Source of the DNA: a virus | Strand: one strand, 5' to 3' | DNA length: 64,000 nt | Virus record (IMG/VR): IMGVR_UViG_3300026097_000008 | Location: 1-64,000 of that record | Translations under genes and position numbers: made by a program | Shown: in pieces, positions 1 to 8,558 of the stretch | Numbering within the stretch: the first letter of the stretch is position 1 | Layout: each line of letters opens with the position of its first letter | Notes under the pieces: model-generated | What the model saw: the letters and a program-made list of their open reading frames with translations, nothing else | What the model was told of the DNA's origin: nothing | Databases searched by the model: none

Positions 1-13
1 TATATACTTCTAG

Positions 14-26
14 TAAGCTATTGATA
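14..26 (-). promoter_or_regulatory. IHF consensus site
   Basis: Reverse complement TATCAATAGCTTA matches WATCAANNNNTTR exactly. Near-matches at 51-63, 113-125 and 330-342. Confidence 0.65.
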
Positions 27-183
27 TTGTTGGAGTTCAAGTTCACACACTAAGCTATTGTTGTTTATGGTGATTTGTTCGAACTGTGTCGCGGGGTCTA
101 ATAGAGCTTATAGAACAATGACTTATGATGTGTTGTTGAGGCTGTGCGTGAGGTATAGCTTCTAACTGTGTGTGAGGGGCCGT

Positions 184-242
184 TGTGGATAACGTTATAC
201 ACAGTGTAGGTTGTGGATAAACTGTGGATAAACTGTGGATAA
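184..242. promoter_or_regulatory. Cluster of 5 DnaA boxes
   Basis: TGTGGATAA (reverse complement TTATCCACA) at 184-192, 212-220, 223-231 and 234-242, plus TTATACACA at 195-203. The last three have an 11-bp period. Confidence 0.9.
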
Positions 243-275
243 CTTTTGCGAGCGAGAAGAACGGACAAACGAACG

Positions 276-303
276 GGTGCGCATAAGACATATTATGTTA
301 AAT
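276..303 (+). other. dif: dif-like XerC/XerD recombination site
   Basis: GGTGCGCATAA-GACATA-TTATGTTAAAT. Both 11-bp arms are identical to E. coli dif; only the 6-bp core differs. Confidence 0.9.
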
Positions 304-351
304 GTGTGTGCGAGGATTTTCCTCAACGTTTTCAAACACTTAGCGGATTGC

Positions 352-399
352 ATTTAACATAATCCCGTGTGTGTGCGCATATAAGTTATTATGTTAAAT
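352..399. other. Second dif-like site (372-399) plus inverted XerD arm (352-362)
   Basis: TGTGCGCATAT-AAGTTA-TTATGTTAAAT (XerC arm 9/11, XerD arm 11/11). ATTTAACATAA at 352-362 is an exact inverted XerD arm. Confidence 0.75.
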
Positions 400-416
400 T
401 GGGGCGAGGGGGCCGC

Positions 417-429
417 TAAGTTGTTGATT
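417..429 (-). promoter_or_regulatory. IHF consensus site
   Basis: Reverse complement AATCAACAACTTA is an exact WATCAANNNNTTR. It lies in an imperfect inverted repeat, 315-346/413-444. Confidence 0.7.
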
Positions 430-567
430 TTGTTGAGGGAAATCGATTTATAACCTCTTGTTTTTGCTAGTGTTCTTTCTGTGCCGTTTGTGCATTTTTT
501 AGTTGACAGCAGCACAAACTTGTAGTATAGTGTATATACAAGCTTAAACAATATAGAGGGCACTACT

Positions 568-828
568 ATGCAAACACAAACATACACAAACGCTGTTGCA
601 ACTGTTATTGCGTTTTACGCAAAGCAAATTGCAAACGCAAGCTACGACAGCGTAGCGGAAGCTAACGACTACAGCATAACAGACAACTGCGAAAAAATAC
701 AGTACTTGCTTGCGGAAAGTGCGCAACACACTACTGTGCAAAGTTTAGCAGTTGCCGCGCTTAACAGTGCAGCGGATACAGTAGTACGCGAGTGCATGTA
801 TACACAATTGCAAGCGCAAATTAATTAA
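568..828 (+). CDS. Early hypothetical protein (86 aa)
   Basis: Own promoter; GAGGGC at 556; ATG. Confidence 0.8.
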   Translation: MQTQTYTNAVATVIAFYAKQIANASYDSVAEANDYSITDNCEKIQYLLAESAQHTTVQSLAVAALNSAADTVVRECMYTQLQAQIN

Positions 829-901
829 AAAACACTTGACAACTGCGTGTACATATGCTATAGTGTATGTACACGTTAACAATAGCAAAGAGGGCAAACT
901 T

Positions 902-1078
902 ATGCTAAACAAACTTAGTACGCTTAAAGTTAAAAACGGACGCTATGCGCGAATGCAAGTAATTCGCATTTTGGATAATGCTGTACAGTATAGTGCGCTG
1001 TTTATTAAAAACGACGGCTATACAGAAAAGCGCATTTGCACTGTGCGTAATAACACTGTAGTAGCTTGGCAAAGTTAA
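902..1078 (+). CDS. Early hypothetical protein (58 aa)
   Basis: Promoter at 836; GAGGGC at 890. Start moved to ATG 902. Confidence 0.75.
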   Translation: MLNKLSTLKVKNGRYARMQVIRILDNAVQYSALFIKNDGYTEKRICTVRNNTVVAWQS

Positions 1079-1166
1079 CAAATTAATAGTAAAATACAAT
1101 TGTACATTGTAGCATGTGTGTGCTATAGTATACACGTACACTAACAAATAGCAAAGAGGGCTATAT

Positions 1167-1367
1167 ATGCAAAACACACAAACACTGCTACAACAGTATA
1201 ACAGCACCCGCCGTTTTTTACTTACGCTAAACGAAGCGCAACTGCATTTATTAATAGCTGCATTAGATGACAACAACTGCTTGCAAATAACACAAGCACA
1301 AGTGGACAGCGCATACGACGCAATAGACGAACGCACACGCATGCAATATGCACAACACACAAAATAA
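1167..1367 (+). CDS. Early hypothetical protein (66 aa)
   Basis: Promoter at 1101; GAGGGC at 1156. Confidence 0.8.
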   Translation: MQNTQTLLQQYNSTRRFLLTLNEAQLHLLIAALDDNNCLQITQAQVDSAYDAIDERTRMQYAQHTK

Positions 1368-1450
1368 TTTAAAAAACGGTTGACAGCACAGCAAACTTGT
1401 GCTATAGTATACACATACACTAAACAAACAATTGCAATAGAGGGCAAACT

Positions 1451-1588
1451 ATGCAAAAGCTTTTAAACAAAATTACTTTTTACTTTTTGCAACGTGCGTA
1501 TGCGCAAATGGAAGCAACGGGCGACTTGCAAAACGCAGACGACGTTGCGGAGCACGTAGAAGATTATTTTACATATTTTGTAAAATAA
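1451..1588 (+). CDS. Early hypothetical protein (45 aa, not in ORF track)
   Basis: Promoter at 1380; GAGGGC at 1440; MQKLLNKITF...YFVK*. Confidence 0.75.
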   Translation: MQKLLNKITFYFLQRAYAQMEATGDLQNADDVAEHVEDYFTYFVK

Positions 1589-1663
1589 CACTTGACATGT
1601 GTGTGTACTTGTGCTATAGTATACACACACTAAACAAACAATTGCAAAAATAGAGGGCTATAT

Positions 1664-2005
1664 ATGCAAACAATTAATGATACTACATACGTGCAAGCAC
1701 ATGATGCTGCAAACTTAATTACGTTTTTAGCTACAGAATTAGCTATGTATACAGCACGTGTAAAATACACACACGAAACTATTAATAGTATGTGTGTTAA
1801 ACAATTGTGTGATAATATTGATTTTTTAAACTGTGTATATAACGATTGTGTTAATAACACACAGCAACACGAAATGTTTAGTGTAATTGCTGTGTTATTT
1901 GCAGATGGTTATGCAGATGATATTTTAAACAATAATATATTTGACACGTTTAAAGAATTTTGTGCTATTAATAATTTTGAATATGACGAATACAAATATT
2001 TTTAA
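1664..2005 (+). CDS. Early acidic hypothetical protein (113 aa)
   Basis: Promoter at 1592; GAGGGC at 1653. Confidence 0.8.
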   Translation: MQTINDTTYVQAHDAANLITFLATELAMYTARVKYTHETINSMCVKQLCDNIDFLNCVYNDCVNNTQQHEMFSVIAVLFADGYADDILNNNIFDTFKEFCAINNFEYDEYKYF

Positions 2006-2098
2006 ACACTGTATAAATTAACAGTTGACAAGTGTGTGTATGTGTGCTACAATGTACACATACACTAAACAAACAATTGCAAAAATAGAGGGCTATAT

Positions 2099-2293
2099 AT
2101 GCAAAACAAGTACGCTACGCTTAAAGCACAACTGCTTGCAGTAATTGAAGCAGCAGATGATGCATACGATTTGACTGACGTAGATGAATATGCAGATGCA
2201 AGCAACGAATATGCGCTTGTGCTTGAAGAGATTGTGCAACTGTACGAAGCTGCTGATTTTGATACACAAAGCATTGTGCAAAACGCACTGTAA
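2099..2293 (+). CDS. Early highly acidic protein (64 aa)
   Basis: Promoter at 2025; GAGGGC at 2088; D/E-rich. Confidence 0.8.
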   Translation: MQNKYATLKAQLLAVIEAADDAYDLTDVDEYADASNEYALVLEEIVQLYEAADFDTQSIVQNAL

Positions 2294-2371
2294 AAAATAA
2301 CACTTGACATGTGTGTGCGTGTGTGCTATAGTATACACGTACACTACGCAAACAGCAATAGAGGGCAAACT

Positions 2372-2839
2372 ATGTACACATTTGCAAACACACTGCTTAC
2401 TAAACTTGCGGCATGCGAGCATGTTAACGTTGAACAGCGCGACAGCGAAGAATACGTTGTGACAGTAGACTTAGGCGGCGGCTATGCTGACAAGGACTGG
2501 GAAGGCGGCTACTGGGCTGACACAGTGCGCATTACGGACGAAACGCTAGAATTGCAGTTTAGCGTATTTGGTGGAGACAGCAACTGGAACGCTGACGATG
2601 ACTGCGATTACTGCATAGGCGAAGGCTACGTACACATGCACTACGCAGACTATGGCGAAGGCAACTTAGCATACACAAGTGCATTAGAAGATGCGATTAA
2701 CGATGCTATACAAACACGCACAAATGGCATACTGTATGCAGACGGAAGCGAGCAGGGCATGCAAGGCTACGACAGCGCAGACGAGTGCTATTTAAGTTTA
2801 GACATTGAAGAGTGGTACGAGGAGACTGTGCAAGCATAA
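2372..2839 (+). CDS. Early highly acidic protein (155 aa), possible DNA mimic
   Basis: Promoter at 2304; GAGGGC at 2361; start ATG 2372. Very D/E/Y-rich with few K/R. Confidence 0.8.
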   Translation: MYTFANTLLTKLAACEHVNVEQRDSEEYVVTVDLGGGYADKDWEGGYWADTVRITDETLELQFSVFGGDSNWNADDDCDYCIGEGYVHMHYADYGEGNLAYTSALEDAINDAIQTRTNGILYADGSEQGMQGYDSADECYLSLDIEEWYEETVQA

Positions 2840-2934
2840 AAATAAATTGCACTGCTGTTAAAAAAACACTTGACAGCAGTGCAAACTTGTGCTATAGTGT
2901 AAACATAAACTTAAACAAGCGAGAGGGCTACGCC

Positions 2935-3252
2935 ATGTTTTACGTATACGAGAAAGCAACCACTTATATTATCGGCAAGCAGGGCACACCGGATCATCGT
3001 GCTAGCTACAAGACAATGGCTGCGGCTAAGGCAGCACTCACACGCATTGCAAAGGCGAGTGGCTTAATGCCCGTGGATGAGAACTATCCCCTCTACACAC
3101 TAGGCATTGCAGAAGCTGCCTACTTCCACAAGTCGATTGAAAAGCAAGTCAAGCGAAAGGTGCTTGAGGGCTTTGGCGGCAAGGAATATTACGAACCCAT
3201 CAACACTCCCAACTACTGCTCGCCCAGCTCAGAAAGTTATTGGTCGATGTAA
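2935..3252 (+). CDS. Early hypothetical protein
   Basis: Promoter at 2870; GAGGGC at 2923; ends TPNYCSPSSESYWSM. Confidence 0.85.
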   Translation: MFYVYEKATTYIIGKQGTPDHRASYKTMAAAKAALTRIAKASGLMPVDENYPLYTLGIAEAAYFHKSIEKQVKRKVLEGFGGKEYYEPINTPNYCSPSSESYWSM

Positions 3253-3321
3253 AAAGAGGTTGACAGCGTAGCCGTTTGAGGCTATACTGTATATAACAGT
3301 TAGGCAAACGGAGGGCAATCC

Positions 3322-3564
3322 ATGCAAAACACATTTATAACAGACTACGGTATGTTTACTAGCGCAGGCAACTGTGCTGTGGACGAAATCGTTCGCGAAG
3401 CACGTGAGCTGGCAGGTGTAGACGGGCCAGTTAACCCTGTACAACAGGCCATCAACTACATGCTCAACGAACTGGAGTACCTAGGCAAGGAACACTTCGA
3501 AGAAGCAGAGGACACCGCGGTACGTGAAGCCGCACTGGCAGAGTTCTTCGCAGAGGAGGATTAA
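3322..3564 (+). CDS. Early acidic hypothetical protein
   Basis: Promoter at 3260; GAGGGC at 3311. Confidence 0.85.
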   Translation: MQNTFITDYGMFTSAGNCAVDEIVREARELAGVDGPVNPVQQAINYMLNELEYLGKEHFEEAEDTAVREAALAEFFAEED

Positions 3565-7556: not shown

Positions 7557-8558
7557 ATGCAAAACATTAAAATCACAGAAGGGTACTACAAGATTCGAGG
7601 CAAAGACACATCAGTGGCTGGACTTGTGTTTCCCCTAGTAGAAGAATTTAAAGTAGGCAACAAAGGCGGCTATGTCACAGTAGACGGCCGAGCAATTGCA
7701 GGCTTCCCAGACCGTAATATCAAAATCAGTTGCGGTGGCCCGGAGGACTACGAGCTTGTTGGTGCAGACGTATCAGTCAGCCAGCGAGAAGAGACAGACG
7801 AAGAGATCATTGAGCGCCTGCGAGAGCGTTTCGACATGCTAAAGGAAATGACCAAAGCTGTCAAGAAAGGCGATGTGCGAGCGATGATTGTTTCGGGTCC
7901 TCCGGGCGTAGGTAAGAGTCACGGCGTAGAAGAAGTGCTAGACCGCTACAAGATGATGGAGACACTTGGCGGCACCAAGAAGTACGAAGTCGTCAAAGGT
8001 GCTATGAGCCCGATCGGATTGTACGTAAAGCTTTTCAAATATGCAGACAAAGACAATGTATTGGTGTTCGACGACTGTGATTCAATCTTCGACGAGCCGC
8101 TTGCTCTTAATATTTTAAAAGCTGCGCTTGATAGCAAGAAGACACGTACCATTCACTGGAACACAGATTCATTCAAGTTGCGCAACGAAGGAGTGCCAGA
8201 CAGTTTCAAGTTCGAAGGTAGCTGTATCTTTATTACCAACCTGAAGTTTGATAACGTTAAGAGCAAGAAACTACGTGATCACCTTTCAGCACTAGAGAGC
8301 CGTTGTCACTATATGGATCTTACCATTGACACAGAGCACGAGAAGATGCTCAGAATCAAACAGGTGATCCGCGACGGTATGCTAGATACATATGAGTTCG
8401 ATGAAGAACTCAACGAAGAGATTATCGACTTTGTCGATATAAACAAGAAGCGACTGCGTGAGCTGTCATTAAGAACAGTACTTAAGGTCGCCGACTTGGC
8501 CAAAGCTTTTCCCAGCAATTGGGAGGCGATGGCTGAAAACACTGTGATGTCGCGTTAA
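7557..8558 (+). CDS. AAA+ ATPase
   Basis: Walker A GPPGVGKS, Walker B VLVFDDCD, sensor-1 IFITN, ALESR; promoter at 7498; GAGGGC at 7548. Confidence 0.9.
   Translation: MQNIKITEGYYKIRGKDTSVAGLVFPLVEEFKVGNKGGYVTVDGRAIAGFPDRNIKISCGGPEDYELVGADVSVSQREETDEEIIERLRERFDMLKEMTKAVKKGDVRAMIVSGPPGVGKSHGVEEVLDRYKMMETLGGTKKYEVVKGAMSPIGLYVKLFKYADKDNVLVFDDCDSIFDEPLALNILKAALDSKKTRTIHWNTDSFKLRNEGVPDSFKFEGSCIFITNLKFDNVKSKKLRDHLSALESRCHYMDLTIDTEHEKMLRIKQVIRDGMLDTYEFDEELNEEIIDFVDINKKRLRELSLRTVLKVADLAKAFPSNWEAMAENTVMSR

Follow-up and report, generated by a model that had tools for sequence, protein, structure and literature searches.

A module of DnaA boxes, IHF sites and paired dif-type sites ahead of the early genes of an uncultured jumbo phage

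We analysed a 64,000-nt stretch of viral DNA (the window), the first 64 kb of an IMG/VR virus record of 154,976 bp (class linear, CheckV completeness 44%), and found that positions 14-444 constitute a real cis-acting module combining DnaA boxes, IHF sites and two dif-type sites. The individual sites were confirmed, they are enriched over chance and biased in strand, they are conserved in relatives, and the XerC arms co-vary. Consensus matches and conservation suggest that DnaA, IHF and XerC/XerD of the host bind the module, and we found no conserved host-factor docking module of this kind described in the literature. Our preferred reading, to which we assign a probability of roughly 0.35, is that host XerCD recombines the phage's own DNA here, for cyclisation, monomerisation or both, with IHF and perhaps DnaA as cofactors. 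The combination of DnaA boxes, IHF sites and a dif pair points to a step of lytic infection that depends on host chromosome-maintenance proteins.

Sites in the window and their surroundings

Among the products of the contig behind the window are a tail sheath of 1130 aa, a large terminase, a DNA polymerase and a DnaB-like helicase. Its large terminase (TerL) is 54% identical to that of the Pseudomonas jumbo phage PA5oct, the nearest cultured phage, and the label "T4-like" given in the original prediction therefore holds only loosely, the phage being PA5oct-like by TerL. The source is an uncultured jumbo myovirus of a marine and saltern clade, and neither positions 1-3000 nor 1-1200 of the window matched any cultured phage by megablast or blastn. 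The module occupies a gene-free control region of 1.3-2 kb ahead of the early genes, and all of its motifs lie, as predicted, upstream of the first early promoter (Table 1).

Table 1. Coordinates of the module's sites and repeats and of the adjoining early features, in window positions
Feature	Position	Strand	Remarks
Exact IHF consensus WATCAANNNNTTR	14-26	-	Exact match; in repeat family D1
Repeat family D1	14-33, 51-70, 417-436		Three copies
Near-IHF site	51-63	-	Two mismatches; in repeat family D1
Near-IHF site AACAATGACTTAT	113-125	+	One base from ATCAATGACTTA, a form common in relatives
Perfect DnaA box TGTGGATAA	184-192	-	Exact match; partner in inverted pair
DnaA box TTATACACA	195-203	Opposite to 184-192	Inverted pair 184-203 (palindrome I5)
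Three perfect head-to-tail DnaA boxes TGTGGATAA	212-220, 223-231, 234-242	-	11 bp start to start
dif-type site A	276-303	+	GGTGCGCATAA-GACATA-TTATGTTAAAT; XerC and XerD arms both as in E. coli dif
Imperfect 32-nt inverted repeat I1	315-346 / 413-444		IHF or IHF-like site in each arm; brackets the inverted XerD arm and site B
Near-IHF site between sites A and B	330-342	+	One mismatch
Extra exact XerD arm, inverted	352-362	-	Part of repeats I2 and I4
dif-type site B	372-399	+	TGTGCGCATAT-AAGTTA-TTATGTTAAAT; XerC arm with two mismatches, XerD arm exact
Exact IHF consensus WATCAANNNNTTR	417-429	-	Exact match; in repeat family D1
First early promoter	503-531	+	TTGACA-17-TATAGT, sigma-70-like, first strong one; right-hand limit of the module
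First ORF	568-828		

The original prediction had listed five DnaA boxes (an inverted pair and three in 11-bp phase), two exact and three near IHF sites, one dif site with E. coli arms and a second near-dif site, and we recovered every one of them in place. The boxes occur far above chance: the four perfect ones (starting at 184, 212, 223 and 234) are the only perfect boxes in the 64-kb window, where 0.66 are expected, and the rest of the 154,976-bp contig holds only three more. The fifth box, TTATACACA, is of the E. coli R2 type. For sites A and B, none are expected by chance (100 shuffles), and the exact 11-mer of the XerD arm is present in the 155-kb contig only at A, at B and at 352-362. 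The last of these, a third and inverted XerD arm, extends the list given in the prediction.

The framing of the block as a mimic of both oriC and the terminus was only partly supported. As in an oriC-type origin, a cluster of DnaA boxes is accompanied by an IHF site; the consensus boxes and IHF site resemble those of oriC, datA and DARS2, and the 2-bp head-to-tail gaps are those of oriC arrays. Unlike these loci, the module has no visible unwinding element (neither an AT-rich element nor DnaA-trios were seen by eye after the last box in the window and its relatives), its boxes vary in number and position between relatives, and it pairs DnaA boxes with dif sites, whereas in chromosomes dif lies opposite the origin. 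On the terminus side, both sites have the 28-bp layout of chromosomal dif (XerC arm, 6-bp centre, XerD arm), with 0 arm mismatches in A and 2 in B. The E. coli dif reference sequence (Kono et al. supplement) has the centre TGTATA, unlike GACATA in site A. A chromosome carries a single terminus site with converging KOPS, whereas we found two sites plus one half-site. KOPS (GGGNAGGG) were absent from both strands of the window's contig (G000, 155 kb) and of its relative G001 (262 kb); this absence over 417 kb is uninformative because only ~4 would be expected, G-runs being generally depleted in both contigs.

A separate compositional feature follows the module. On the coding strand of window 481-2930, the first 2.45 kb of early genes, we counted 1 TC where 112 are expected and 5 CC where 83 are expected. 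This depletion is strand-specific, and usage of both dinucleotides is normal before 481 and after 2930.

The block had also been described as terminal, for which a contig end was the only basis. Position 1 is a contig end at an assembly break with no mapped genome end, and contigs from other samples run past it. In G001 the module is internal: at ~61.5 kb it separates a tail-fibre-like gene from the early cluster. A Logan contig of the likely source run spans 1-535 and is longer than that, a Logan contig from a different study continues for 94 nt beyond position 2 on the left, and Logan contigs from three other studies (saltern, marine plankton and marine) also cover the block. Since these contigs extend to the left of position 1, DNA continues beyond the window start. 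Contig ends in many assemblies do cluster at the module and within ~150 nt on either side of an 18-nt anchor described below; we considered them as physical ends and rejected this, as conserved sequence shared among co-occurring relatives, which breaks assembly graphs, explains them better.

The position of the block at the very start of the contig could also have indicated an artefact, namely a host fragment chimerically joined to phage DNA or a chance cluster of motifs. Independent assemblies (L089, G001-G003) place the module next to the same early genes, which rules out a chimeric host fragment. In addition, the Logan contigs of the likely source run and of three other studies hold the block, and the chance expectation of the motif cluster is close to 0. 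The artefact reading is already refuted by the independent assemblies and the Logan contigs, and we leave it practically no probability.

The module in relatives

We searched IMG/VR and metagenome contigs for two dif-type sites 60-90 bp apart. Three other IMG/VR contigs (G001, G002 and G003) and 31 metagenome contigs matched, representing 27 distinct versions, and the metagenome loci came from marine, estuarine and saltern samples. Where the flanks of these loci were long enough, they carried the same early genes as the window or the genes found upstream in G001. In every one of the 27 versions the two dif-type sites are direct repeats separated by 86-108 bp. As the search pattern fixed the arms, it accounts in part for how well they are conserved across the 31 metagenome loci. 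The 6-bp centres differ freely between phages (GACATA, GGCATA and TTGATA among them), and within one phage those of A and B are always unlike. One site type carries TGTGTA, GACATA, TGCATA, GGCATA and similar centres, the other AATATA, AAGTTA and AGTTTA.

The remaining motifs recur as well. Over 17 kb of module regions from relatives, IHF-consensus matches numbered 100 versus 1.5 in dinucleotide shuffles, and DnaA boxes (TGTGNAWAA) numbered 57 on the dif strand versus 1.7 in shuffles, with 2 on the other strand. Of the 27 versions, 13 have an exact IHF consensus between their dif sites, and near-sites were read by eye in some others; the inverted extra XerD arm is likewise present in 13/27. A DnaA box commonly stands 12-20 bp upstream of the XerC arm; box number (0-6) and position are variable, and the arrays share the same 11-12-bp spacing. 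Within the block, only two short stretches could be aligned with G001: window 223-252, with the last DnaA boxes, and window 350-407, which contains site B and the inverted XerD arm. Enrichment, strand bias and conservation in relatives thus strengthened the predicted reading of these motifs as host-protein sites, while binding itself is what we infer from consensus and conservation.

Two further samples of relatives were assembled independently of the motifs, one through a conserved AAA+ ATPase 7 kb downstream of the module (65 loci) and one through the 18-nt anchor ~0.6 kb upstream (37 loci). In these samples, paired dif sites were restricted to one sub-clade, comprising G001/G003, G002, L204, L238 (which sits on the same IMG/VR contig as L163) and the window. 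L238 and L204, both found without the motif, have exact XerD arms, and the XerC arm shows one and the same change, GCGTATAA, at both sites of each, a pattern that would result if the sites followed the XerC of a host. At the same place, other relatives have DnaA arrays without a dif pair (seven boxes in L242, five in L237, convergent arrays in L223 and L240), and further relatives have only IHF-like sites and lineage-specific repeat arrays. The control region is modular, and the dif pair is an optional, non-essential part of it. As to whether the motifs are missing from the same position in relatives, the outcome was divided: they are kept in the sub-clade and missing elsewhere. Searching IMG/VR for two XerD arms at the module's spacing, with free XerC arms, returned mostly chance AT-rich repeats; proper XerC arms beside such pairs were found only in the present clade and in L262/L264, two small unrelated viral contigs.

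We then asked which proteins could act at these sites. Profiles for Phage_integrase, Bac_DNA_binding and Bac_DnaA_C had no match in G000-G003 (contigs 9-73% complete), and among the same contigs ParB_N gave a sub-threshold match only, in G003. With no recombinase, IHF/HU, DnaA or ParB gene found, host proteins are implied. The arm core TGCGCATAA with TTATGTTAAAT fits the dif of several gammaproteobacterial groups, namely enterics, Marinobacter, Aeromonas and Psychromonas; the listed dif sites of Vibrio and Photobacterium do not fit it. Among 185,579 species genomes we found no integrated copy and no isolate or plasmid relative, the only TerL relatives being phage contigs binned into metagenome-assembled genomes (MAGs) of unrelated taxa. 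One 335-kb contig (G004:C57) breaks off within the early cluster and does not reach the module.

The control regions of relatives hold other conserved sequences. The anchor has a core of 18 nt (GTATTTGAACTATGCCTC) that is exact in 37 IMG/VR loci, amid otherwise unalignable DNA, and mostly extends to ~22 nt (AGTATTTGAACTATGCCTCTCG in L041; L041 683-704, L045 7019-7040). It lies ~0.6 kb upstream of site A, beyond the window start, and is a candidate protein site, pac site or repeat boundary. Between anchor and module are short, lineage-specific direct-repeat arrays (L045 7190-7350, L165 4190-4330, L153 3290-3360, L237/L246) that look like iterons. The unit in L045 is CTCACTATATAG, one copy of which resembles a T7 promoter core, and other lineages have units CTACTACAC or ACCGGTA; the window's first bases are similar to the last unit of the L045 array. 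An operator-like palindrome of ~23 nt (TAAATGCGAAT.ATTTGCATTTA type) occurs in the control region of several relatives (L041 1015-1040), with two copies flanking the module in L107. Just downstream of site B, a conserved element of ~50 nt starting CAGGCATCGGTAGTGTTTGTC (L045 ~7810-7865) is found at the same place in at least eight other relatives, e.g. L083, L085, L086, L094, L106, L108, L109 and L111, and is absent from the window. This element had no Rfam match, and an Rfam search of the L041 and L045 loci gave tRNAs only.

Candidate functions and known systems

In the preferred reading, host XerCD would act at sites A and B on the phage's own DNA. Two terminal-repeat copies of an injected linear genome could be joined into a circle, as by Cre-lox in P1, or replicated multimers could be reduced to monomers, as by cer and psi in plasmids, or both. 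Bending by IHF would assist the reaction architecturally or through regulation, and a DnaA oligomer beside the XerC arm might do the same. A self-deleting reaction between A and B would be blocked by the difference between their centres, which is seen in every phage. Centres that vary between phages and differ within a phage fit recombination of phage with phage rather than integration into host dif, and they would be free to drift because each needs to match only its partner copy and not the host site.

Several points support the preferred reading: both core sites are intact, the IHF bend falls halfway between A and B, and the patchy distribution suggests dispensability like that of P1 Cre-lox. 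In addition, PA5oct, the nearest cultured relative, has early genes in direct terminal repeats of 39 kb (PMC7318152). Three points count against it. XerCD at dif normally requires FtsK at the septum, and we found no KOPS; the module is missing from many clade members, which have DnaA arrays alone or neither element; and the model leaves the need for two core sites unexplained. We know of no established role for DnaA in any Xer reaction.

Two established types of Xer- or Cre-like system come near this reading. As the module may be, loxP with Cre in P1 is a recombination site of a large phage, able to circularise injected DNA and to resolve multimers. P1 can do without it where homologous recombination operates, in keeping with the patchy distribution of the module. 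P1 brings its own recombinase, whereas the module would use host XerCD at two non-identical core sites. The plasmid sites cer (ColE1) and psi (pSC101) share with the module a core of XerC arm, 6-8-bp centre and XerD arm. They exploit host XerCD, as the module would, and next to the XerC arm they have ~180 bp of accessory sequence that binds proteins, as the module's flank may do. Their accessory proteins are ArgR or ArcA together with PepA; by eye we recognised no ArgR or ArcA box in the module, whose XerC-side flank holds DnaA and IHF sites instead. The module also differs from cer and psi in that its XerD arm is exactly that of E. coli dif and its core is paired.

Host XerCD is also used by integrase-less phages with dif-like sites (CTXphi, VGJphi and TLCphi; IMEX), and the module might accordingly be read as an attP through which a giant phage integrates at host dif. 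The contigs gave no integrase match, most exact dif-arm matches in IMG/VR fall in small contigs of ~4-15 kb, and CTXphi and TLCphi records are among the INPHARED matches. IMEX phages, however, are small filamentous or satellite phages that integrate at host dif, and here the centres vary widely and are mostly unlike the near-universal TGTATA, with no integrated copy in the 185,579 species genomes. CTXphi has two inverted sites ~90 bp apart that act as a single-stranded hairpin, whereas the module has two direct, double-stranded copies. We consider integration of this type very improbable.

The module's position beside the early genes recalls the "iss" region of T5. In T5-like phages the pre-early genes lie in a terminal repeat whose untranslated part is rich in repeats and palindromes and contains 8 DnaA boxes, paired at a distance of 3 bp (bioRxiv 10.1101/866236). 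As there, we found close-set conserved DnaA boxes in a repeat-rich untranslated region by the earliest genes; like the module, iss is a large gene-free region of a lytic phage whose boxes are kept across relatives. By analogy with the injection stop proposed for T5, membrane-associated DnaA, XerCD (with septal FtsK) and IHF might capture or pause the first-entering DNA by the early genes, or hold the ends. The DnaA arrays adjoining the early genes at the same 11-12-bp spacing agree with such an entry or anchoring handle, and the strand-specific lack of TC and CC over the next 2.45 kb would fit first-exposed DNA or RNA. Conversely, the role of the T5 boxes is itself a hypothesis only (Davison, bioRxiv 10.1101/866236), the T5 region has no dif-type sites, and its boxes lie in inverted repeats, whereas those of the module are mostly head-to-tail on one strand. 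T5 is, moreover, a siphovirus with mapped termini, whereas the present phage is known from assembled contigs, and within its clade the module is optional. We therefore judge an entry handle fairly unlikely.

The clustering of DnaA boxes and IHF sites with possible iterons (the lineage-specific short repeats) in one gene-free region would also suit a plasmid-like replicon, that is, an iteron-type origin dependent on DnaA and IHF with an Xer multimer-resolution site, by which the phage would persist as a carrier or pseudolysogen. The pSC101, P1, F and R6K origins combine iterons with DnaA boxes and IHF sites in this way. Moreover, L262/L264 place 2-3 dif-type sites beside six iterons, just after an ORF with a primase-type zinc finger, and PA5oct has been suggested to enter a carrier state (PMC6950013). 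In the PA5oct genome, however, we found neither a dif-type site nor clustered boxes, its two DnaA boxes being scattered. GC skew along the contig follows gene direction only, with no origin or terminus signal; the boxes lack the unwinding element or trios noted above; ParB stayed below threshold; and relatives appear only as MAG-binned phage contigs, neither in isolate genomes nor as plasmids. These points make a replicon unlikely.

High-affinity consensus sites in phased arrays could instead titrate host proteins, DnaA as at datA and XerCD as well, blocking host initiation and chromosome resolution, or could form a roadblock or insulator before the early promoters. The boxes share one orientation relative to early transcription, and A and B, if bent together by IHF, might form a non-productive XerCD synapse. 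With one locus per genome and nothing specific for titration, and with a fixed two-site geometry and ever-differing A and B centres that a sink does not need, we regard this reading as improbable. Of the three roles in the original prediction, the datA-like sink is thus possible with nothing specific in its favour, and the other two, covering dimer resolution, circularisation and an entry handle, are the best candidates.

dif-type sites in cultured lytic phages

We searched cultured phages (INPHARED) with a perfect dif taken from L085. The matches were mostly rV5-like Vequintavirinae, including many of 131 Escherichia-phage records, in which the site reads GGTGCGCATAA-TGGGTA-TTATGTTAAAT, lies in non-coding DNA and has exact E. 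coli arms. In phage Gotham (MT682716.1; L271 1501-1529) it occupies positions 169-197, within the annotated 459-bp direct terminal repeat, and in several rV5-like records it was seen at both ends. In Erwinia phage Hena1 (MN732867.1; L272), a 519-bp "direct terminal repeat 1" is annotated, and GGTGCGCATAA-GGTGTA-TTATGTTAAAT occupies positions 289-316 of it. The site of both analogues, Gotham and Hena1, thus has the lox-like placement in both copies of the terminal repeat. The IMG/VR loci L063 and L080 also carry a dif-type site as in Vequintavirinae.

These phages share with the module the same XerC and XerD arms, a non-host centre (TGGGTA or GGTGTA) and a location in non-coding DNA, and they are strictly lytic myoviruses with no integrase annotated at the site. 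They differ in having a single site and no DnaA array, and in that the site lies inside mapped repeats of 459 and 519 bp, whereas the present module is known from contigs alone. By analogy, their sites may lend indirect support to circularisation in the jumbo clade. That cultured E. coli phages have such a site within mapped terminal repeats is, like the module, a pointer to a step of lytic infection dependent on host chromosome maintenance.

Exploitation of Xer is known for small integrating phages and for plasmids; we know of none by large lytic phages, and to our knowledge phage DnaA-box clusters are known only from T5 relatives, where their function is unproven. Full-text literature searches returned no paper that connects Xer with the terminal repeats of lytic phages, and none that connects DnaA boxes with dif-like sites in phages. 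A broader proposal, which we put forward as doubtful, is that strictly lytic tailed phages with terminal repeats (the jumbo clade, rV5-like coliphages and Hena1) regularly rely on host XerCD for genome circularisation or monomerisation, the IHF bends and DnaA filament of the jumbo clade being new Xer accessory factors. If so, IHF and DnaA could free the Xer reaction from FtsK or couple it to the replication status of the host. Since every motif agrees with the E. coli consensus, K-12 supports growth of rV5-like phages and the simplest version of the module is present in cultured E. coli phages, the proposal is directly testable in E. coli.

A further arrangement of dif-type sites was seen outside the clade, in the small unrelated viral contigs L262 (minus strand, ~3100-3450 in reverse coordinates) and L264, where six GAAACTATATT iterons are followed by direct dif-type sites. 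In L262 the iterons come directly after a 179-aa ORF with a primase-type CHC2 zinc finger, which suggests another origin-plus-Xer arrangement.
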